64,000 nt of DNA. Origin: Candidatus Omnitrophota bacterium. GTDB taxonomy: Bacteria; Omnitrophota; Gorgyraeia; Zapsychrales; JANLHA01. Below, piece by piece: positions 25,326 to 63,051 of the stretch (positions are counted from its first letter, which is position 1; every line of letters starts with the position of its first letter). The position numbers were made by a program, and so were the translations under genes. The notes beneath the pieces are model-generated. The model had not been told where the DNA came from and searched no databases. It saw only the letters and a list, made by a program, of their open reading frames with translations. Location of the stretch: positions 133,152 to 197,151 of the forward strand of contig JACKFI010000001.1 of the NCBI GenBank assembly GCA_020632555.1, given 5' to 3'.

Positions 25326-25497
25326 GTGAATTTACGAGCCTGAAAACATCCCTTGATCATTCTTTTCTCATGACTATTAATAGTGGTTTTATTGTCAAAA
25401 GGCGGGATAGAACTATCTTCGATAGGTTCAGGTTATGAAAGGTCTAGCCTGATTCCCAACCTGTTTAATAACAATATGTTGCGTGATGGTCAAAAAA

Positions 25498-25515
25498 ATG
25501 TGCCAGATTTGTGCC
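25498..25515 (-). promoter_or_regulatory. Repeated 18-bp motif copy 1 (minus strand reads GGCACAAATCTGGCACAT; sigma54-like -24/-12 spacing), ~173 bp upstream of the PAS-LuxR gene
   Basis: Identical core at 29995-30012 and 35935-35952. The motif extends to ~37 bp of similarity with copy 2. The GG and GC dinucleotides are 12 nt apart as in TGGCAC-N5-TTGC. Confidence 0.4.
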
Positions 25516-25556
25516 TATCCTAAAGAGCTACTTTTTTTGATGATAAGCCGACCTGA

Positions 25557-29918: not shown

Positions 29919-29994
29919 TTTTTAATAACCTAACGTTGTTAAATCACCTACAAGCGCCCTCGTTTTGTCATACACTGCGTAATGGTCAATAAAA

Positions 29995-30012
29995 ATGTGC
30001 CAGATTTGTGCC
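29995..30012 (-). promoter_or_regulatory. Repeated 18-bp motif copy 2 (GGCACAAATCTGGCACAT on the minus strand), 77 bp upstream of the 449-aa TPR protein gene
   Basis: 37-bp stretch 29975-30012 matches 25479-25515 with 2 mismatches. Confidence 0.4.
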
Positions 30013-30017
30013 ACATG

Positions 30018-30443
30018 CTATATGAGTTTTTCCATTTTTTCTATAGCAGCATAGTAAATACTCAAAAACTTATCTTTTATTGTAAAAAGCTCGTCCATCA
30101 TTTTTTCAGAATGGGACTTATTCTCATATTCAAAAGGATAAAACCGAATACCCTTTTTATAAAATCCGCCTTCATAATTAATTTGAAAAAAATAATCTCG
30201 GTCAACAAGAGATCGATGCTTACTCAAGTTACAAAAACTCCTCACGTAGCCAAACTCATCTGAGTCAATCCATTCTCCTATAGCATTCTCTAAATCCGGA
30301 GCGATACCTTTCAATTGTTTACTCACTTTATAAATTGTAACTTTGCTTCGGGGCAGCGTAGAAGATAGGATTACCATATTGATTACCTGTGCGCAAATAT
30401 CAGGAGCCAAAGAGAATATTTCCAAACGTGCCATATTCAGCAC
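30018..30443 (-). CDS. Hypothetical protein
   Basis: 141 aa, no recognisable domain. Alternative Met start 3 codons in (MARLEIF). Confidence 0.35.
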   Translation of the reverse strand: MLNMARLEIFSLAPDICAQVINMVILSSTLPRSKVTIYKVSKQLKGIAPDLENAIGEWIDSDEFGYVRSFCNLSKHRSLVDRDYFFQINYEGGFYKKGIRFYPFEYENKSHSEKMMDELFTIKDKFLSIYYAAIEKMEKLI

Positions 30444-35842: not shown

Positions 35843-35934
35843 TCAATCCCTAATTTAATCATCCGTGATAGTTTATTTGAGAATTTATTGTAACCCCAAG
35901 AAGTGGCGTCAGGGGGGATTTTTGGTGCCAAAAC

Positions 35935-35952
35935 ATGTGCCAGATTTGTGCC
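35935..35952 (-). promoter_or_regulatory. Repeated 18-bp motif copy 3 (GGCACAAATCTGGCACAT on the minus strand), between rtcR 3' end and the HEPN gene
   Basis: Core identical to copies 1 and 2. The flank also carries a TGGTGCC variant. No obvious downstream minus-strand gene (would be antisense to rtcR). Confidence 0.3.
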
Positions 35953-35976
35953 ATAGCAAAATGCCATCTTTTTGTA

Positions 35977-37057: not shown

Positions 37058-37149
37058 TATAACATTGTTTCCAGAACTGTCAAATTTATACTGCTCCACG
37101 GTGATATACCGTATTGTGTGTAAATTAACTGTCATCCCCGAAATTTTTT

Positions 37150-38545
37150 ATCGGGGAACCATTTAAAAGTAGTAAAAAAAGGCGTATCTTTCTGTTTGGA
37201 AATGTTTAACCGGGTTGACCCATGTCAGCCCAGAACAGAAAGGATACGCCCATGTACCAAACATTTGATACTTTAAAACATCGCGGAGCCGGGTCAAGGA
37301 TTTCATTAATTATACCCAACCGAAAGATTTTTGGATCGATATTAATATGCATCTTAGAAAACTAACCAAAAGTTTTATTGAAGAAACTCTCGACGAAGAA
37401 ATGACCCAATATCAACAACGAGAAAAACATCAGCGGTTAAAGAAAATGATCGATTACCGAAACGGACATTATCAACGCAACCTCGATACGACCATCGGCC
37501 CTCTTGATAATATTGCCGTTCCGCGTTCACGAAGCGGACTATTTAAACCTACGGTTTTTAAGCGTTACCAAAGACGCCAAGAAGCTGTTAACACCGTCAT
37601 CTGCAATGCCTTCCTGCGCGGCATATCCACCCGTGAAGTCGCTGGCGCTTTAAAACCAATCCTTGACACCAACATCTCCGCTTCCGCCGTCTCACGAATA
37701 ACAAAATCTTTAAATGCCCAAGTTAAAGCATTCCATCAACGTCAACTGCTCGACGAATATCAGTTTTTATTCCTAGACGGTATTGCTATCTCAGTCAAAG
37801 GAGCGCTTAAAGCCAAGAAAATTCTTGTCCTAACTGCTTATGGCATTACGATCTTCGGTAAAAAAGAGCTCATCGCCTTTAGAATCTCTAACAGCGAGTC
37901 AAATCAAGCCTGCGAAGGATTTTTAAATGATCTATTTAAACGCGGCCTGCAAGGCAAAAACCTTAAATTGATTATCACCGACGGGTCCAAAGGCTTTATT
38001 AACGCCGTCGACCTCGTTTACCCTCACGTCAAACATCAGCGCTGCTGGGTTCATAAACTTCGTAATTGCACTAAACATCTTAAGAAATGCGATATTGATG
38101 CATTTAAAAATGATGCCCGCAAGATTTACAATGCCTCGACTCATCGAGATGCTGTCGCGGCTTTTAAGAGTTTACGCCAACATTGGGTCAAAGATTATCC
38201 GCAAGTTGTCAAACTCATCGAACAGGATTTAGATAGTCTTTTGGCTTTTTTAGAAATTCCAATCAAGGAACAATACCGCGAATTTATCCGTCGTCGAATT
38301 CGTACAACCAACATCATCGAGCGTTCATTCCGGGAAATCAGACGCCGCACCAGACCCATGGGATGTTTTGCAAATATTGATAGCGTCAGCAGGATTATTT
38401 ATGCGATATTTAATCGCTTAAACACCAAATGGCAGGAGAAACCTTTAACCCAATTTACACAATTTATTTGACATTACCGCAAATTGAAAGGTGCGGTTAA
38501 AACAAGAAAACCCCGTCTCTCCTCGACGGAAAACAGGGTTTTATA
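37150..38545 (+). mobile_element. IS256-family insertion sequence (boundaries approximate; terminal inverted repeats not resolved)
   Basis: The transposase CDS has ~190 bp of upstream and ~70 bp of downstream non-coding flank. A 16-bp-stem long hairpin (GGCGTATCTTTCTGTT…AACAGAAAGGATACGCC) lies at 37196-37257. Confidence 0.4.
37347..38471 (+). CDS. tnp: IS256-family (Mutator-type) transposase
   Basis: 374 aa. Typical IS256 transposase N-terminus (…IEETLDEEMTQYQQREKHQRLKKMIDYRNGHYQRNLDT…) and DDE core. Confidence 0.85.
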   Translation: MHLRKLTKSFIEETLDEEMTQYQQREKHQRLKKMIDYRNGHYQRNLDTTIGPLDNIAVPRSRSGLFKPTVFKRYQRRQEAVNTVICNAFLRGISTREVAGALKPILDTNISASAVSRITKSLNAQVKAFHQRQLLDEYQFLFLDGIAISVKGALKAKKILVLTAYGITIFGKKELIAFRISNSESNQACEGFLNDLFKRGLQGKNLKLIITDGSKGFINAVDLVYPHVKHQRCWVHKLRNCTKHLKKCDIDAFKNDARKIYNASTHRDAVAAFKSLRQHWVKDYPQVVKLIEQDLDSLLAFLEIPIKEQYREFIRRRIRTTNIIERSFREIRRRTRPMGCFANIDSVSRIIYAIFNRLNTKWQEKPLTQFTQFI

Positions 38546-38548
38546 TTG

Positions 38549-38562
38549 GTTGCGGGGACAGG
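38549..38562 (-). repeat. 14-nt direct copy (TTGCGGGGACAGGA) of the tRNA-Met 3' end, att-like
   Basis: Exact match to 38731-38744 (tRNA acceptor/T-stem 3' strand), ~170 bp downstream of the tRNA 3' end. Confidence 0.45.
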
Positions 38563-38695
38563 ACCTGCCTACCGGCAGGCAAGTTTGAATGGTTTCGCGG
38601 CTTCGCTTACGCTCAACCATTTCCTCGCCTAACGGCTCGGTCACCTGCGCTCGCTTTCGCTCGCTGCACGTCCATTCACCCATCCCACTAATAAA

Positions 38696-38725
38696 TTAAG
38701 AAGGCCCCAATTGGGGCCTTCTTAA
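38696..38725. terminator. Perfect 13-bp-arm palindromic hairpin TTAAGAAGGCCCC-AATT-GGGGCCTTCTTAA immediately 3' of tRNA-Met
   Basis: Read directly from the sequence. GC-rich stem flanked by A/T runs on both sides (bidirectional terminator-like). Confidence 0.55.
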
Positions 38726-38730
38726 TTTAA

Positions 38731-38804
<74 letters not shown>

Positions 38805-38834
38805 GCTATTCTTAGTAATAATATCTTGAGGTAG

Positions 38835-39050
38835 CCGCGGCACTTCCTCGGGTATTAAGCGTCTGTCGGCCTCGCCACGGTGGGCTCGGCACTCCTTCGC
38901 ACTTTACGTGCTCAGTCGCCCGCTTTGGTACTAAATACATCTTAATATAACGGCGGCACTTCCTCGGGCATTAAGCGTCTGTCGGCCTCGCCACGGTGGG
39001 CTCGGCACTCCTTCGCACTTTACGTGCTCAGTCGCCCGCTTTGGTACTAA
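38835..39050. repeat. 2 x 100-bp near-identical GC-rich tandem repeat (16-bp spacer) between tRNA-Met and the ftsB-eno operon
   Basis: 38835-38934 and 38951-39050 differ at 2 positions. Unit: CGGCACTTCCTCGGG(T/C)ATTAAGCGTCTGTCGGCCTCGCCACGGTGGGCTCGGCACTCCTTCGCACTTTACGTGCTCAGTCGCCCGCTTTGGTACTAA. Confidence 0.6.
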
Positions 39051-39230
39051 TGCTATCTTTTGATACTATAAATATCTTTAAATCTTTATGCAGATCCCCA
39101 ATAAAATCCTTCGGGGATGACAACTAATTAGGATTGCCGCGCCCCTTCGGGGCCCGCAATGACAAATCTTTTCGATTTGGTTCTCGTCGAAAAGGGACTC
39201 ACTGCGTTCGCAATGACAACACTTCTAATT

Positions 39231-39512
39231 CTATCTTTTCTCGCTATTAGCGGGTTGGTTGATTCGATAAACCACTTCACCATTGCGAATCAGGCCCATC
39301 TTTTCGCGGCCTACTTTTTCTAAATAAATCGGGTCTTCTTCCAAGCGCCGCTTTTCTTCTAACATCTTAATTTTACGCAACTTAAGCGCCTCAATCTTGT
39401 CGCTATACTCCACATTCTTCTGTCGCAAATCTTGAAGTTTTGTATAAGACGGCAAAAAAATATAAAGAGCGAGAATCGCAAAACCAAAAAGCCAAAGGGC
39501 GTTTTTTATCAT
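39231..39512 (-). CDS. ftsB: Septum-formation initiator FtsB/DivIC-like
   Basis: 93 aa. N-terminal TM plus coiled coil. Lies downstream of eno, a common arrangement. Confidence 0.7.
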   Translation of the reverse strand: MIKNALWLFGFAILALYIFLPSYTKLQDLRQKNVEYSDKIEALKLRKIKMLEEKRRLEEDPIYLEKVGREKMGLIRNGEVVYRINQPANSEKR

Positions 39513-39579
39513 CGTAATCAGAAGTTAGAATTTAGTGGAAAATATTTTTTCCCAACTAGCCGCTAACCACCCGTTGCTA

Positions 39580-40854
39580 TTAATATATCTTGCCCCACAA
39601 AGCGCCGGCATAAACTGCTTTTTTGCCAAGCTGTTCTTCAATACGCAAAAGTTCATTATACTTGCAAAGCCGATCGGTGCGCGATAAAGATCCGGTCTTA
39701 ATCTGCCCAACGCCGGTGGCAACAGCCAAATGCGCAATGGTGGTGTCTTCTGTCTCGCCTGAGCGATGAGAAATAATCGATGTATATTTGTTCTTTTTAG
39801 CCAAATTCACGGTATCCAATGTTTCGGACAAACTGCCGATCTGATTGACTTTAACCAAAATCGAATTGGCAACGCCCCTATTAATACCGTCTTTTAAACG
39901 TTTGACATTGGTCACAAACAAATCATCTCCAACCAGCTGAACTTTCGCAGCTAATTTATCAGTCATAACCTTCCAACCGTCCCAATCATTTTCATCCAAA
40001 CCATCTTCGATAGAAACAATCGGATAATTCTTGAGCATGCTGGCATATACCGCGATCATTTCGTCAGCGGTATTAATTTTGCCATTGTAATTGTAACCAC
40101 CTTTTTTATCAAAAAAGGAAGCCGCCGCGCAATCTAACGCGATAGAAATATCTTTGCCTGGTTTATAACCGGCTTTGCTGATCGCGTCGATAATCAAAGA
40201 CAAGGCTTCTTCATTCTTGCCCAAGTTCGGCGCGAAACCACCTTCGTCACCGACGGAGGTAGAAAGTTTTTTGTCATGCAAAATTTTCTTTAAGTTATGA
40301 AAAACTTCGGTCGCCATGCGAATCGCTTCGCTAAACGTTGGTGCGCCGATGGGAGCGATCATAAATTCTTGAATGTCCAGATTATTGTCCGCGTGCAAAC
40401 CGCCGTTTAAAATATTCATCAAAGGCACCGGCAAGATGCTGGCCCGATTGCCACCCAAATAACGATACAGCGGTTCTTCCTTATCTTCTGCGGTCGCCTT
40501 GGCAACAGCCATCGAAACGCCCAAAATCGCATTGGCGCCCAATTTGGATTTGTTTTCAGTGCCGTCTAAATCTAATAAAATTTGATCGATATCTTGGAAG
40601 TCAGCCTTTTGGCCTTTGATTTTTTTAGCAATCAAGGTGTTCACATTGTCAACAGCTTTGGTAACGCCTTTGCCCATCCAACGGCTTTTGTCCCCGTCGC
40701 GCAATTCGATAGCTTCGTATTCTCCCGTCGATGCGCCTGATGGAACCGCTGCGCGTCCGAAAGCGCCGCTGCCCAAAAGAACGTCAACCTCAACGGTTGG
40801 ATTACCACGAGAATCAATGATCTGTCTTGCTTTCACTGCTTTAATTTTTGCCAT
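39580..40854 (-). CDS. eno: Enolase (phosphopyruvate hydratase)
   Basis: 424 aa. N-terminus [25 protein letters not shown] and full enolase signature. Confidence 0.95.
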
Positions 40855-56951: not shown

Positions 56952-57024
56952 AGCTGGCGGTCAGGGTTGAACTGACGGCCTGCGCATTACGAATGCGCTG
57001 CTCTACCGACTGAGCTACGCCAGC
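56952..57024 (-). tRNA. tRNA-Thr (anticodon CGU)
   Basis: Minus strand reads GCTGGCGTAGCTCAGTCGGTAGAGCAGCGCATTCGTAATGCGCAGGCCGTCAGTTCAACCCTGACCGCCAGCT. Anticodon loop TTCGTAA. No encoded CCA. Confidence 0.85.
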
Positions 57025-57490
57025 GAATTACCTTAAAATAATCAAAACAAACCTTAAGAAAAATTCGCCAGTACTGTTTTCCTTATATCTTTTTACAGAA
57101 AAAACAGTGCGCCAGCAAACTTCCACTAAACTTACAAAATTTACCCTTAGAACAGTTTGCCAGTACTGCCTTCTACTTTTACTATCTTGAGAAGGCATGT
57201 ACGCCAGCGAATTACCTTAAAATCATCAAAACAACCTTAAGAAAAATTTGCCAGTACTGTTTTCCTTATATCTTTTTACAGAAAAAACAGTGCGCCAGCA
57301 AACTTCCACTAAACTTACAAAATTTACCCTTAGAACAGTTTGCCAGTACTGCCTTCTACTTTTACTATCTTGAGAAGGCATGTACGCCAGCGAATTACCT
57401 TAAAATCATCAAAACAAACCTTAAGAAAAATTTACCAGTACTGTTTTCCTTATATCTTTTTACAGAAAAAACAGTGCGCCAGCATTTACA
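57017..57490. repeat. ~183-bp tandem repeat x 2.6; each unit begins with the first 8-10 nt of tRNA-Thr (ACGCCAGCG)
   Basis: Unit starts at 57017, 57201 and 57384, >95% identical. Each unit contains the internal inverted repeat ACTGTTTT…AAAACAGT and two GCCAGTACTG boxes. Confidence 0.7.
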
Positions 57491-57503
57491 TCAAATTTTT
57501 CGC

Positions 57504-57650
57504 GGGAAACCGGGACATCACCCACCGAACAACATTGCACCAAACTAAAAAAAAAGAATGGTGCCGAGACTAAGGGATTGTTGTGGGAAACCGGGATTTC
57601 ACCCACCGAACAACAAAGCACCAAACTAAAAAAAAGAATGGTGCCGAGAC
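57504..57650. repeat. ~81-bp tandem duplication; each copy ends with the last 12 nt of tRNA-Phe (TGGTGCCGAGAC, i.e. ...GTCTCGGCACCA)
   Basis: 57504-57570 vs 57585-57650. The second copy's end is the genuine tRNA 3' end. Confidence 0.65.
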
Positions 57651-57714
57651 CCGGAATTGAACCGGGGACGCACGGCTTTTCAGGCCGTCGCTCTACCGAC
57701 TGAGCTATCTCGGC
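57639..57714 (-). tRNA. tRNA-Phe (anticodon GAA), CCA encoded
   Basis: Minus strand reads GCCGAGATAGCTCAGTCGGTAGAGCGACGGCCTGAAAAGCCGTGCGTCCCCGGTTCAATTCCGGGTCTCGGCACCA. Close to E. coli tRNA-Phe. Confidence 0.88.
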
Positions 57715-59376: not shown

Positions 59377-62300
59377 TTACAACTTGGGCGAAAGAACAAT
59401 AACGCCAGATTTTACAGTACTGGTATCCTGATCTTGCGGATAAGCCGCAACAACCGTATCTCCACTTAAAGCAATACTCTGCCCAAAATTGAGAATACCG
59501 GCTCCTGCTAAATTATACGCCCAGGCAAAAGAATTATTGGCCTGACGTTTAAAAACAATCACTGAATCCGTTGTATGTATCGAACCTAACGAGAAGGTTT
59601 TAGGATGCATCGCAACGGCGACAGTATTGTCTTTGGCCGTAAGGCTGATAATCGCACTGCTCGAATGCCACGGCAAGCTTAAGCGAGAATACGATGTATT
59701 CCACGTGCTAACCGGCGCTCCATACGGAGCATTGCGCATTTCATTAAAAATAAAAACATTACTCAAAAGAGTAATATCAGGAACAGCACTCAACGCAACA
59801 ATAAGCTGATGACCAACAACCTTGGTTGCCGTCAAAACAGCCTCAGCATTCTGCGGCGTTAATAACCCTATCTCTTGACCAAAATTAGCTATATCGTTTT
59901 CATACGTTTTTTCTAATGTCCAGAGACCTTGTCCTTTGTAACGATAGATAAAGATTTTACTCTTTTCGGTTTCCGAAGCTTTGGGCGCGCCAACTGCAAT
60001 AATCCCATCACCGACAGCTACCGATTGAGCAAATTGAACTTTACCAGCTTCCACTCCAGACAACTTCAATGTGGCCGCATAAGCCCATGCACCATTGTTA
60101 CGACTGATCACATACACAACTTTAGCCGACGGTAAAGAAACCGCCAAGCTGTCTGACGAAAGAGCCAGTTTCATATTACTAACTAAAGCTGGATCTAAAT
60201 TATCAATTTTACTAAGATCCAATTTATTGCCAGCTTGAACCCAAGCATTATTAACTTTGGAGAAAAAATAAAGACTGCTCTGCGCTTGCACAACCAACGC
60301 ATCTTTATTAGCCGCCAAAGTCTTGCCAAACTGATCACCATCTGCCAAACCTACAGGCGCGATAATCGCGGGCACAGGCACAGACTGTGTTGCATCAACA
60401 GGCATGCTCTTATATTGATAAACAACACCTTTGCCATTAACACTAGGGGCTCCGACGAATAATTCATTGCTCTCTTGCAAAACAGCAACGCTTTGCGCAA
60501 AACCAATGTTAAACTGCGGCGTTGCCAAACGGCCTGCTGACAGATTATCCAAATTGCTATAATACTCACCAACCGTGATTTTATCAGCTGGCTTTTTTAT
60601 AGCAGCAATAAATGAATCCATCACAAATTTTGCTTTCGCAGGATCTTTTAATGCCCAAATATTTTGAAAATACTTATTCATTGCATACTTTGTGTTCCAA
60701 AGCATTTTACTATCATAATAGTTACCAACGTTTGTTTTATCTGCCGGATTAAGAACTACGGCTATAATGGATTCCATCACAAACTTCTCTTTGGCAGGAT
60801 CCTTCGCCTGCGCCAAAATCGAAACATAACTATTGATTGCCGCTTGAGCTTTAAGCACAGCCGTTTGATCATAATACTGCCCAATTGTGGTTTTATCCGC
60901 AGGATTTAAAACTGTGGCCAACAATGATGTCATCACAAACTTCGCCTTAGCTGGATCTTCGTTCCCAGCCGATAAAACTGTGAAATAATTGTCAATCGCG
61001 ACTTTCGCTTTTGTCACCGCCACTTGATCCAAATACTGACCAATTGCGGTTTTGTCGGCAGGATTTAAAACTGTGGCCAACAATGATGTCATCACAAACT
61101 TCGCCTTAGCTGGATCTTCGTTCCCAGCCGATAAAACTGTGAAATAATTGTCAATCGCGGCTTTCGCTTTTGTCACCGCCACTTGATCCAAATACTGACC
61201 AATTGCGGTTTTGTCGGCAGGATTTAAAACTGTGGCCAACAATGATGTCATCACAAACTTCGCCTTAGCTGGATCTTCGTTCCCAGCCGATAAAACTGTG
61301 AAATAATTGTCAATCGCGGCTTTCGCTTTTGTCACCGCCACTTGATCCAAATACTGACCAATTGCGGTTTTGTCGGCAGGATTTAAAACTGTGGCCAACA
61401 ATGATGTCATCACAAACTTCGCCTTAGCTGGATCTTCGTTCCCAGCCGATAAAACTGTGAAATAATTGTCAATCGCGGCTTTCGCCTTTGTCACCGCCAC
61501 TTGATCCAAATACTGACCAATCGCGGTTTTGTCGGCGGGATTTAAAACCGTCGCAATCACTCTATCCATAACCAATTTTGCATTAACTGGATTTTGTACC
61601 GCAGCCAATAAAACCTGAAAATAATTATCAATTGTAATTTTAGAATTTGTTACCGCAGATTGATTGTAATAATCTCCAACAATCGCTTTTTCTGCAGGAT
61701 TCAAAACTGCAGCAATAGCCGAATCCATCGCCAGTTTTGCTTGCGCTGGATTTTTGGTAACAATCAACAATGTCGCAAAATAATCATCAATCGCAGCTTT
61801 AGCTTTATTAACAGCCATCTGAGACATTCCAATGCTGTAATAATTTGCAACAATGGTTTTGTCAGCAGCATTAAGAACCGTCGCCATTACAGCCTCCATA
61901 ACAGCTTTTGCCGTTGCTGGATTTTGCCCAGCGGCCAAAGCAGAAAAATAATTATCAATCGCAACTTTGGCCTTCACAATAGCTGTTTGGCCGTAATAAT
62001 TATTAACAATAAGTCTATCCGATGGATTAAGAACCGCCGCCATAGCGGCTTCCATGACAGTTTTCGCTATTGCTGGATTTTGCGCAGCCATCAAAGCAGA
62101 AAAATAATTATCAACCGCAGCTTTGGCCTTCACAATAGCCGTTTGGCCGTAATAATTATTAACAATAAGTTTATCTGATGGATTAAGAACCGCCGCCATA
62201 GCGGCTTCCATGACAGTTTTCGCTATTGCTGGATTTTGCGCAGCCATTAAAGCAGCAAAATACTTATCAATCGCCGCTTTGGCCTTCACAATAGCCGTTT

Positions 62301-63051
62301 GGCCGTAATAATTATTAACAATAAGTCTATCTGATGGATTAAGAACCGCCGCCATAGCGGCTTCCATGACAGTTTTCGCTATTGCTGGATTTTGCGCAGC
62401 CATCAAAGCAGCAAAATAATTATCAACCGCCGCTTTGGCCTTCACAATAGCTGTTTGGCCGTAATAATTACTAACAATAAGTTTATCTGATGAATTAAGA
62501 ACCGCCGCTATAGCGGCTTCCATGACAGTTTTCGCTATTGCTGGATTTTGCGCAGCCATCAAAGCAGCAAAATACTTATCAATCGCAGCTTTGGCCTTCA
62601 CAATAGCTGTTTGGCCGTAATAATTACTAACAATAAGTTTATCTGATGGATTAAGAACCGCCGCCATAGCGGCTTCCATGACAGTTTTCGCTATTGCTGG
62701 ATTTTGCGCAGCCATCAAAGCAGCAAAATAATTATCAACCGCCGCTTTGGCCTGAATAATAGCTGTTTGACCATAATAATTATTCACGATAGATCTATCT
62801 GCCGTGTTAACTACGGCAGCCATGGCCTGATCCATTGCAACCTTAGCTGCTGATGGATTCTGTCCACTCAACAAGACGCTAAAGTAATTGTCAATAGCCA
62901 CTTTAGCAGCTTCGACAGAAGTCAACTGCACTGCTGTCCCCACACTTGAACTTTGAGCATACACCATACTGGGCAATGCCAGCATGCCAAAACCAGCGCA
63001 CGCTCCCAACAATACAACAACAACCTTCTTAACCAAACTCTTTCGATTCAT
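59377..63051 (-). CDS. Large secreted repeat protein: ~20 tandem 48-aa alpha-helical repeats + C-terminal FG-GAP (integrin-alpha-like beta-propeller) repeats
   Basis: Signal peptide. Repeat unit NYYGQTAIVKAKAAVDNYFAALMAAQNPAIAKTVMEAAMAAVLNPSDKLIV. C-terminal QFGKTLAA, FAQSVAVGDG, FGQEIGL, FGQSIALSGD (FG-GAP-like). Confidence 0.7.
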   Translation of the reverse strand: MNRKSLVKKVVVVLLGACAGFGMLALPSMVYAQSSSVGTAVQLTSVEAAKVAIDNYFSVLLSGQNPSAAKVAMDQAMAAVVNTADRSIVNNYYGQTAIIQAKAAVDNYFAALMAAQNPAIAKTVMEAAMAAVLNPSDKLIVSNYYGQTAIVKAKAAIDKYFAALMAAQNPAIAKTVMEAAIAAVLNSSDKLIVSNYYGQTAIVKAKAAVDNYFAALMAAQNPAIAKTVMEAAMAAVLNPSDRLIVNNYYGQTAIVKAKAAIDKYFAALMAAQNPAIAKTVMEAAMAAVLNPSDKLIVNNYYGQTAIVKAKAAVDNYFSALMAAQNPAIAKTVMEAAMAAVLNPSDRLIVNNYYGQTAIVKAKVAIDNYFSALAAGQNPATAKAVMEAVMATVLNAADKTIVANYYSIGMSQMAVNKAKAAIDDYFATLLIVTKNPAQAKLAMDSAIAAVLNPAEKAIVGDYYNQSAVTNSKITIDNYFQVLLAAVQNPVNAKLVMDRVIATVLNPADKTAIGQYLDQVAVTKAKAAIDNYFTVLSAGNEDPAKAKFVMTSLLATVLNPADKTAIGQYLDQVAVTKAKAAIDNYFTVLSAGNEDPAKAKFVMTSLLATVLNPADKTAIGQYLDQVAVTKAKAAIDNYFTVLSAGNEDPAKAKFVMTSLLATVLNPADKTAIGQYLDQVAVTKAKVAIDNYFTVLSAGNEDPAKAKFVMTSLLATVLNPADKTTIGQYYDQTAVLKAQAAINSYVSILAQAKDPAKEKFVMESIIAVVLNPADKTNVGNYYDSKMLWNTKYAMNKYFQNIWALKDPAKAKFVMDSFIAAIKKPADKITVGEYYSNLDNLSAGRLATPQFNIGFAQSVAVLQESNELFVGAPSVNGKGVVYQYKSMPVDATQSVPVPAIIAPVGLADGDQFGKTLAANKDALVVQAQSSLYFFSKVNNAWVQAGNKLDLSKIDNLDPALVSNMKLALSSDSLAVSLPSAKVVYVISRNNGAWAYAATLKLSGVEAGKVQFAQSVAVGDGIIAVGAPKASETEKSKIFIYRYKGQGLWTLEKTYENDIANFGQEIGLLTPQNAEAVLTATKVVGHQLIVALSAVPDITLLSNVFIFNEMRNAPYGAPVSTWNTSYSRLSLPWHSSSAIISLTAKDNTVAVAMHPKTFSLGSIHTTDSVIVFKRQANNSFAWAYNLAGAGILNFGQSIALSGDTVVAAYPQDQDTSTVKSGVIVLSPKL
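60600..62940. repeat. Intragenic 144-bp tandem DNA repeats (two subfamilies; several copies 100% identical)
   Basis: e.g. identical 144-bp units through 60990-61500 and a second subfamily through ~61930-62760. Confidence 0.7.

Follow-up and report, generated by a model that had tools for sequence, protein, structure and literature searches.

Among described systems, the repetitive extragenic palindromes (REP) and bacterial interspersed mosaic elements (BIME) of enterobacteria come close to the repeat reported here: they are short, GC-rich, imperfect palindromes located between genes and 3' of stop codons, occur in clusters whose copy number varies among relatives, and form stable stem-loops without U-tracts, of the kind that defines mRNA 3' ends and protects upstream E. 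coli transcripts from the 3' exonucleases PNPase and RNase II (PMC6061677). Likeness is also found to the spacers of stable-RNA operons and to intervening sequences (IVS), which are dispensable, lineage-variable and strongly structured inserts in a stable-RNA precursor, presumably removed during maturation, to the attachment (att) sites of tyrosine integrases, and to the t-elements of plant mitochondria, mascRNA and pseudo-tRNAs. The repeat in question lies in the spacer 38805–39230 of a 64,000-nt stretch of DNA from a Candidatus Omnitrophota bacterium (contig JACKFI010000001.1), hereafter called the window, and is read on the minus strand, with a tRNA-Met gene on one side and ftsB/DivIC on the other. 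It is built from a hairpin module of about 44 nt, found so far only beside the putative initiator tRNA gene (tRNA-fMet) in several Omnitrophota lineages. No described family fits the module, and it is a modest curiosity and no new gene: a lineage-specific family of structured intergenic repeats, unusually confined to one tRNA locus.

Related loci (numbered L002, L089 etc.) were collected by an FtsB alignment scan of species-representative genomes, which gave 61 Omnitrophota loci. The modules share with REP and BIME the intergenic, GC-rich imperfect palindromes 3' of a stop codon, where terminator positions suggest transcription, as well as the clustering, the variable copy number and the stable stem-loops without U-tracts. 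They differ from them in being found only around one tRNA gene (five covariance matches in 64 kb), in having all copies on one strand, whereas REP alternate, and in an elaborate, conserved architecture that includes two G·A loops; a RAYT transposase did not turn up, no RAYT search having been made, genome-wide or otherwise. As with stable-RNA spacers and IVS, the insert is lineage-variable and strongly structured, and the same spacer holds putative four-helix-bundle and GIY-YIG open reading frames (ORFs) in relatives; unlike IVS, the modules lie outside the mature RNA, the window copy has no such ORF, and any processing is only predicted. The tRNA 3' end recurs as a 14-nt duplicate 181 bp away, with similar cases in L047 and L053, and an integrase and islands adjoin the tRNA in relatives. 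This recalls att sites, but the likeness covers the downstream side only; the modules stand 5' of the tRNA, where the window has no exact repeat. An integrase-type duplication 5' of the tRNA is not the known pattern in the published classification of integration sublocations. As in t-elements and pseudo-tRNAs, the module 5' end may resemble a tRNA 5' end, the upstream units of some relatives start with exact tRNA nt 1–12, and from their position the ends would be set by RNase P when it cuts at the tRNA; the module is, however, a single rod hairpin, and no cloverleaf was found in the units by ARAGORN or the Rfam tRNA model.

An earlier note, made from the sequence alone, had described two 100-bp tandem units with 2 mismatches. 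The repeat is real and GC-rich, but its period is 116 and its 95-nt cores differ at one base. Tandem Repeats Finder gave a single array at 38837–39050 (period 116, 1.8 copies, 98% matches), and the full copies, A at 38813–38928 and B at 38929–39044, were 91% identical over 116 nt in a repeat search. By direct count, 10 mismatches per 116 nt separate the copies, 9 of them in the AT-rich linker, which leaves the GC-rich cores 38837–38931 and 38953–39047 (63–64% GC vs 42% window-wide) with the single difference. A 36-mer from the unit occurs 2 times in the window, with 0 expected. The internal sub-repeats GGCACTTCCTCGGG and GGCACTCCTTCGCAC, likewise noted before, correspond (reverse complement) to the 3' flanks of two half-modules within each unit. 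No ORF explains the region, as had also been seen: the sole one, of 42 amino acids, lies in copy A and is without counterpart in copy B. The Logan assembly of SRR12358676 reproduces 39021–39230 and ends within copy B, as a repeat would cause, so that the exact copy number of two is taken from the window assembly only.

A covariance model (R1), built from seven relatives only with the window sequences excluded, matched each window unit twice at full model length, with E-values of 5e-7 and 2e-4 / 0.026; each 100-bp unit is therefore a dimer of the module. This dimer, the presence of a module also 3' of the tRNA and the setting of the initiator tRNA at an insertion hot spot all go beyond the earlier note. 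The parts of the two units are given below, with scores of a second covariance model (R2) included.

38999–39042, minus strand: module a of copy B, GCGGGC-GA-CU-GA-GCAC-GUAAA-GUGC-GA-AG-GA-GUGCC (R1 37.6 bits, E 5e-7; R2 63.7 bits)
38981–39008, minus strand: bridging GA-hairpin of copy B, GUGCC-GA-GCC-CACCGU-GGC-GA-GGCCGAC, from the parsed architecture and fold, with an L012 homologue that has another loop
38950–38992, minus strand: module c of copy B, degenerate, ...GCUUAAUGCCCGAGGAAGUGCCGCCG (R1 28 bits, E 2e-4; R2 19.4 bits, E 0.003)
38883–38926, minus strand: module a of copy A, identical to that of copy B (R1 and R2)
38834–38876, minus strand: module c of copy A, degenerate (R1 20.4 bits; R2 14.4 bits, E 0.08)

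In each window unit the two halves are joined by such a bridging hairpin, the third GA-hairpin of the unit, whose flanks in copy B are at the same time those of modules a and c; the one core base that differs between the copies is held by module c of copy A.

The architecture was parsed from 16 instances in the minus-strand sense. The module is a rod-like hairpin with an outer stem GCGGG(C/U) ... GU(A/G)CCGC and, next to it, a 2x2 purine loop in which GA faces either AA or GA. Further inwards follow a helix of 2 bp, which occurs as CC/GG, CU/AG, AU/AU or GC/GC, then a tandem G·A / A·G loop (GA/GA) and an inner stem of 2–6 bp, closed by a terminal loop of UUAAU, GUAAN or GNRA. The inner stems comprise nine different sequences, each of them paired. 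Tandem protein-binding sites, one of the candidates of the earlier note, may be present; the conserved flanks GCGAC(C/U)GA ... GA(G/A)G(A/G)AGU would suit such a site.

Single 44-nt modules fold better than shuffled sequences, with z-scores of −2.4 to −4.0 (module a of copy B at −15.3 kcal/mol, z −2.4; the L058 instance, z −4.0). Covariation was assessed on ten genuine instances of 44 nt, aligned without gaps, with a twelve-pair structure: 86.7% of the cells are paired, 5 pairs have changed on both sides, in 15 cells, and one G·U pair is invariant. The covariation score was 0.413 vs 0.146 in column shuffles, of which 0/500 reached 0.413, and slid partners gave at most 0.17. By established RNA thermodynamics, tandem G·A loops are stabilising solely on the module sense strand. 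For a short module the folding energy is −18.8 kcal/mol (z −3.2) in sense and −14.5 (z −1.9) in antisense orientation, and the covariance matches in the window and in relatives are all on the tRNA strand. The invariant G·U pair, the G·A loops, the sense folding and the orientation of the matches together identify the tRNA-sense strand as the relevant one; this is the eno-ftsB strand to which the earlier note had pointed. The comparison with Rfam recommended there turned up no family: with Rfam 15 on both strands at E up to 10, 37500–40500 returned the tRNA only and nothing within 38805–39230, and 18 related loci searched at gathering score yielded only tRNA and group I intron.

R2 was run with filters off on the 64-kb window, which was all of the genome covered. 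Five matches were obtained, four upstream and one downstream of the tRNA, all within about 430 nt, and no others below E 0.4. The earlier note had advised looking for the unit elsewhere; in the window there was one further module (38610–38651, R2 E 0.005) and nothing away from the tRNA-fMet locus. In ~345 kb of related loci every covariance match lay within about 1 kb of tRNA-fMet, and with matches confined in this way the module is not a genome-wide REP on present data. Conservation in related genomes was found as module homologues at the same place and on the same strand, with one to three modules per genome: a single copy in L010 / L002 / L092, L093, L094 and L089, two tandem modules in L090 / L091, one long and one short module in L007, and one long module in L012. 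Outside the training set, R2 matched L094 / L095 (E 3e-6), L064 (1e-4) and L058 (0.07); the copy in L064 is a distant one, the FtsB there being 49% identical. Modules per spacer vary from 0 to 4 among close relatives, and as their number shifts by local duplication and loss, no single copy would be essential. Simpler searches were less informative. A metagenome scan for GGAARTNCCGC-N{20,50}-tRNA start gave only two unrelated chance matches; a GA-stem-loop-GA regular expression was unspecific (24 matches in 329 kb of loci vs 7–20 simulated) and useful just for finding L058; and a MAFFT alignment of the units with the GC-rich segment 38564–38700 was weak and uninformative, R2 later placing one module there.

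The genes and the terminator-like site that frame the spacer are as follows.

39231–39512, minus strand: ftsB (DivIC family; Pfam PF04977, E 3.9e-13), the final protein gene of the eno-ftsB unit
38731–38804, minus strand: tRNA-Met (CAU) with the initiator features C1/A72 mismatch and 5' CGCGGGG (ARAGORN; Rfam tRNA 64.5 bits)
38695–38726, minus strand: terminator-like hairpin directly after the tRNA (detector match at 38726–38695; palindrome)

The FtsB of the window is 100% identical to the protein of an NCBI 'Candidatus Omnitrophica' metagenome-assembled genome (MAG). In about 50/61 Omnitrophota loci tRNA-fMet is downstream of ftsB on the same strand, and in most of the 61 the tRNA-Met shares C1/A72 and the 5' sequence CGCGGGGTGGAGCAGCC, from which we read it as a probable initiator tRNA. 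Between the ftsB stop codon and the tRNA lie 4 to about 560 nt in the related loci, and just 4–30 nt in many of them. Many MAG contigs stop 60–400 nt past ftsB (e.g. L007, L009, L015, L019, L020, L024, L054, L055), in keeping with a tRNA-fMet locus where repeats or differences between strains interrupt the assembly of short reads. Terminators were counted with a simple hairpin-plus-T-run detector in 46 spacers and 44 post-tRNA regions: a terminator-like site lies inside the spacer in 3/46 related loci, and a hairpin with T-run 2–14 nt 3' of the tRNA in 30/44. Because terminators stand mostly after the tRNA and seldom after ftsB, the spacer is probably transcribed and dispensable, and we infer one minus-strand transcription unit, eno-ftsB-tRNA(fMet). 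Sigma-70 consensus promoters (−35/−10 hexamers, 16–18 nt spacing) numbered 0 in 38400–39700 on both strands, with 1.8 expected, a count that leaves room for non-consensus promoters. The terminator-like sites of the window scan were within shuffle expectation (3 vs 1.9 expected), with none at the modules.

The reading preferred here, to which we give slightly less than an even chance, is that the repeat consists of structured RNA modules in a transcribed and processed spacer, part of a pre-tRNA leader or ftsB 3' tail, which are cis-acting or selfish and were recently tandem-duplicated. The modules would be transcribed through read-through from ftsB, RNase P cleavage would release the tRNA from them, and they would stay behind as stable 3'-terminal structures of the eno-ftsB mRNA; alternatively, they may be insulating and processing elements of the tRNA precursor. 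Their action would be that of protective or insulating stem-loops, after the manner in which REP-type stem-loops shield transcripts from 3' exonucleases. The dimer would have been formed first, followed by the recent tandem duplication with period 116. An unexplained GC-rich repeat is now a defined, testable object, namely a covarying 44-nt hairpin module outside Rfam. If processed or bound, the module would modestly extend the known range of cis-acting RNA structures in bacteria and would bear on the maturation of mRNA-tRNA co-transcripts in an uncultured phylum; if the modules are merely selfish hairpin repeats, the finding is an ordinary one.

Several observations weigh against this reading. 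Whole 100-nt units, whose folding had been proposed as a check, are no more stable than shuffles (z −0.2 to −0.9), a null result that first suggested no structure and was resolved when the units were split into modules. The outermost four pairs are poorly kept (40–80% paired), and the ten-sequence set is small, with several close kin and some paralogues from one locus, a relatedness that can inflate the shuffle control; given this small, partly paralogous sample, the structure is well supported for the inner eight pairs only. The covariation of a palindrome could also persist at the DNA level, through hairpin-templated repair or the recognition of single-stranded DNA. Many relatives are without any module, so that any function would be dispensable or lineage-specific, and modules also occur downstream of the terminator (window 38610–38651, L058, L089b), which a pure role as ftsB 3' tail cannot explain.

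The main rival, less probable than the preferred reading, is that the modules are DNA-level debris or miniature mobile elements, left behind or carried along without autonomy by elements that insert again and again at the initiator tRNA gene. They would bear termini like tRNA ends, have been amplified by slippage and have no host role; the hairpins would then matter, if at all, as single-stranded DNA for a recombinase. The tRNA-fMet locus is an insertion hot spot, one tRNA gene heavily used as a landing site: miniature insertions are seen there, as are islands, an insertion sequence (IS), group I introns and GIY-YIG genes. The window tRNA has lost its encoded CCA, while relatives encode 77 nt including CCA, and after its A73 follows a 181-bp insertion (locus 38511–38744), composed of a terminator and a GC-rich structured part and bracketed by a direct repeat, the last 14 nt of the tRNA.

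38564–38694, minus strand: GC-rich structured segment, part of the 181-bp insertion (z −3.65, 0/200 shuffles as stable)
38511–38563, minus strand: displaced tRNA 3' end TCCTGTCCCCGCAA (38550–38563) with CCA, native flank and ancestral terminator (38531–38511), identified as a direct repeat with spacing 181

The structured segment holds the module 38610–38651 and GNRA-capped GA-hairpins and has homologues in L061, L066 and L089; the insert ends in a hairpin GCCUGCCGGUAGGCAGG that is present in L053 too. The flank CCAATA of the displaced tRNA end matches L002, and the ancestral terminator resembles those of L016, L025, L053 and L059. On this downstream side the pattern is that of an att site, with TCCTGTCCCCGCAA at the tRNA 3' end and again at 38550–38563, and no integrase lies within the 181 bp; similar insertions are found in L047 (150 nt) and L053. 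In L002 and L092 an integrase follows the tRNA, in L004 a restriction-modification island does so, and in further relatives GIY-YIG and four-helix-bundle ORFs, bordered by long inverted repeats, occupy the same spacer (L014, L023, L032, L037, L089), the latter ORFs being, in our reading of the translations, possibly akin to the '23S rRNA IVS protein'. An IS256-type transposase at 37347–38471 adds to this picture, as does the copy number of 0 to 4. On the upstream side, the module 5' end and flank may resemble the tRNA 5' end and flank in L089 (aatagcCGCGGG-TGA vs tRNA aatagcCGCGGGGTGGA, with GCGGGCGAC in the window module), and upstream units in several other lineages start with exact tRNA nt 1–12. 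Against this rival stand the G·U pair, which never varies, the conservation of the G·A loops and the single orientation of the copies relative to the tRNA, all of which point to RNA or to one specific strand; there is neither a consistently adjoining recombinase nor a target-site duplication around the upstream modules, and the way in which flanks are kept and stems vary across lineages with FtsB ~50% identical (L058, L064) suggests selection.

Further observations were made at this hot spot. The transposase (37347–38471, plus strand) belongs to the IS256 / Mutator family (Pfam E 1e-89) and separates the tRNA locus from the putative islands; as candidate IS ends there is only a weak 18-nt inverted repeat at 37068–37085 / 38466–38483, and the Logan contig for it ends 3 nt past the stop codon. 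Three copies of AAATGTGCCAGATTTGTGCC occur in the window at 25493–25536, 29990–30033 and 35930–35973, and may mark the borders of tandem islands beside the tRNA, 4.5 and 5.9 kb apart; on the other strand (TGGCACAAATCTGGCACA) the motif lies just 3' of tRNA-fMet in L089 and L090. Initiator tRNA genes interrupted in the anticodon loop, after GGCTCA, were seen in L012, L031, L039, L095 and L088, from Omnitrophota and other metagenomic bacteria, and Rfam group I introns in the tRNA were matched at L012:2237–2433 and L031:3312–3511. At L089:1990–2522 a pseudo 5' half of tRNA-fMet (nt 1–36) is split by a hairpin and three 36-nt repeats with GUGAUGAGCGAAGCGAA, and is followed by a GIY-YIG ORF and then by the intact tRNA-fMet; it looks like the relic of an intron-bearing copy ahead of an intron-less one.

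A more specific proposal starts from the same structure and sees in the 'double G·A rod hairpin' a structured RNA (or single-strand) motif not described before, which would belong specifically to Omnitrophota initiator-tRNA loci and serve as a recognition platform, its tandem copies being a functional dosage and no debris. We consider this improbable. Such a platform might be recognised by a processing factor of the eno-ftsB-tRNA(fMet) precursor; otherwise it might serve miniature elements that mimic tRNA ends and enter the DNA on either side of the tRNA gene.

The spacing of modules, AT-rich linkers and tRNA raises the question of a duplex DNA function, in which the unit and an AT-rich box would form a promoter or activator-binding module, comparable to the tandem promoters of stable-RNA operons, and the duplication would raise initiator tRNA expression. 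Two linkers were delimited.

39048–39093, minus strand: AT-rich linker (GC 21%) with the box TAAAGATATTTATAGTA (39064–39080), from sequence
38805–38836, minus strand: AT-rich linker from the last module to tRNA +1, from sequence comparison with relatives

Boxes similar to TAAAGATATTTATAGTA are found at 38929–38945 and 38813–38829. A conserved box AAGAT(A/G)T(A/T)T follows each unit, and it recurs in L007, L010 and L090. Counted from ...GAGGAAGUGCCGC, the module and the tRNA start (+1) are separated by 33 nt in the window and equally in L007 and L010, and by 30 nt in L064. Set against these regularities are the lack of −35/−10 consensus sequences on either strand where 1.8 were expected, the many relatives in which the tRNA begins 4–30 nt past the ftsB stop codon and a separate promoter is therefore unneeded, and the stem covariation and G·U pair, which would be unexpected for a duplex DNA site; a promoter or activator site is on balance quite improbable.

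The duplicated small RNA gene put forward in the earlier note, with a unit or a pair of units released as an independent, trans-acting RNA, has in its favour a conserved, covarying structure without ORF. It has become a doubtful candidate of low probability, somewhat below that of the regulatory site: neither promoter nor terminator consensus brackets a unit, no Rfam family matches up to E 10, and copy number (0–4 modules) and internal composition vary among close relatives, many of which have no units and spacers of 4–30 nt. The GGA-rich 3' flanks bear a faint likeness to CsrA-titrating RNAs, but the GGA motifs stand in paired or internal-loop positions, outside the hairpin loops, and a CsrA sponge was rejected on this ground. 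Readings of the G·A motifs as hammerhead, k-turn or C/D box were also rejected, the sequence being a misfit to their cores and Rfam giving no match, as were antitoxin repeats of the ToxI type and CRISPR, since no toxin or cas gene adjoins and period and architecture do not fit.

A terminator array for the eno-ftsB operon, the last of the functions suggested earlier, is very unlikely, for although hairpins follow directly past the ftsB stop codon and one weak terminator-like site (39216–39199) lies in the spacer, that site is within chance (3 found, 1.9 expected), the modules are without U-tracts, 43/46 spacers have no terminator-like site, and the terminators of relatives follow the tRNA rather than ftsB.

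The hairpins between ftsB and the repeat form a second structured part of the spacer. As a whole, 39085–39230 is more stable than shuffles (z −2.85 on the minus and −1.73 on the plus strand), which, with the folding of the single modules, bears out the earlier description of the region as non-coding and structured. Three hairpins with UUCG-type loops had been described next to ATGACAA sites. The ATGACAA-adjacent hairpins exist, with the three sites at 39117, 39159 and 39213, but the hairpins number four, three of them belonging to a TGTCAT-hairpin family, and a C(UUCG)G loop (plus strand) is found in the middle one only.

39199–39218, minus strand: hairpin 1, TG-TCATTGC-GAAC-GCAGTGA, with a 7-bp stem that includes one U·G pair (from sequence; motif TGTCATYSCSR; its terminator-like match is within chance)
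39168–39194, minus strand: A/U-rich hairpin CUUUUCGA ... UCGAAAAG (minimum free energy fold of 39085–39230, both strands)
39133–39164, minus strand: hairpin 2, TGTC-ATTGCGGGCCCC-GAA-GGGGCGCGGCAAT (from sequence, fold and TGTCATYSCSR motif)
39094–39122, minus strand: hairpin 3, TGTC-ATCCCCGA-loop-UGGGGAU (35-nt inverted repeat, 83%)

By itself, the 8-mer ATGACAA(C/A) shows no enrichment in the window (9 occurrences vs 7 expected), whereas the extended minus-strand motif TGTCATYSCSR is (5 vs 0.5 expected, 0/100 shuffles). In L011, L006 and L039 the position of hairpin 2 is taken by related hairpins, ATTGCGAG...GCAAT. Hairpin 3 has a family member at window 37123–37157 (plus strand), and its element lies directly 3' of ftsB in L033 and L043; between L004 and L006 one site shows a compensatory A:T to C:G change. 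The inverted repeat 37123–37157 / 39095–39129 prompted the idea that the TGTCAT hairpins might be IS ends; a look-up of the transposase returned the same locus only. As the hairpin 3 element is present in relatives without a transposase in the ±3–5 kb examined, it was treated as a separate hairpin family. A copy in L089 (TGTCATTGCGACCGAG...) combines a TGTCAT-type hairpin with the 44-nt module and suggests that the two may be a single superfamily.

Repeats were also seen elsewhere in the window. Between tRNA-Thr (56952–57024) and tRNA-Phe (57639–57714), both on the minus strand, two tandem arrays occur (window 56952–57714). In the first (57016–57484, period 183), sub-units of ~91 nt start with GCTGGCG(T/C)A, which is tRNA-Thr nt 1–9, followed by an A/U-rich hairpin; in the second (57497–57635, period 81), the 3' end of tRNA-Phe is repeated at the end of every unit (TGGTGCCGAGAC, plus strand). 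This layout of tRNA-end copy, hairpin and AT linker matches that of the upstream units at tRNA-fMet in other Omnitrophota. A further array at 60556–62913, with about 15 repeats of 156 and 159 nt that are 61–100% identical, is most likely a gene for a repeat-domain protein.

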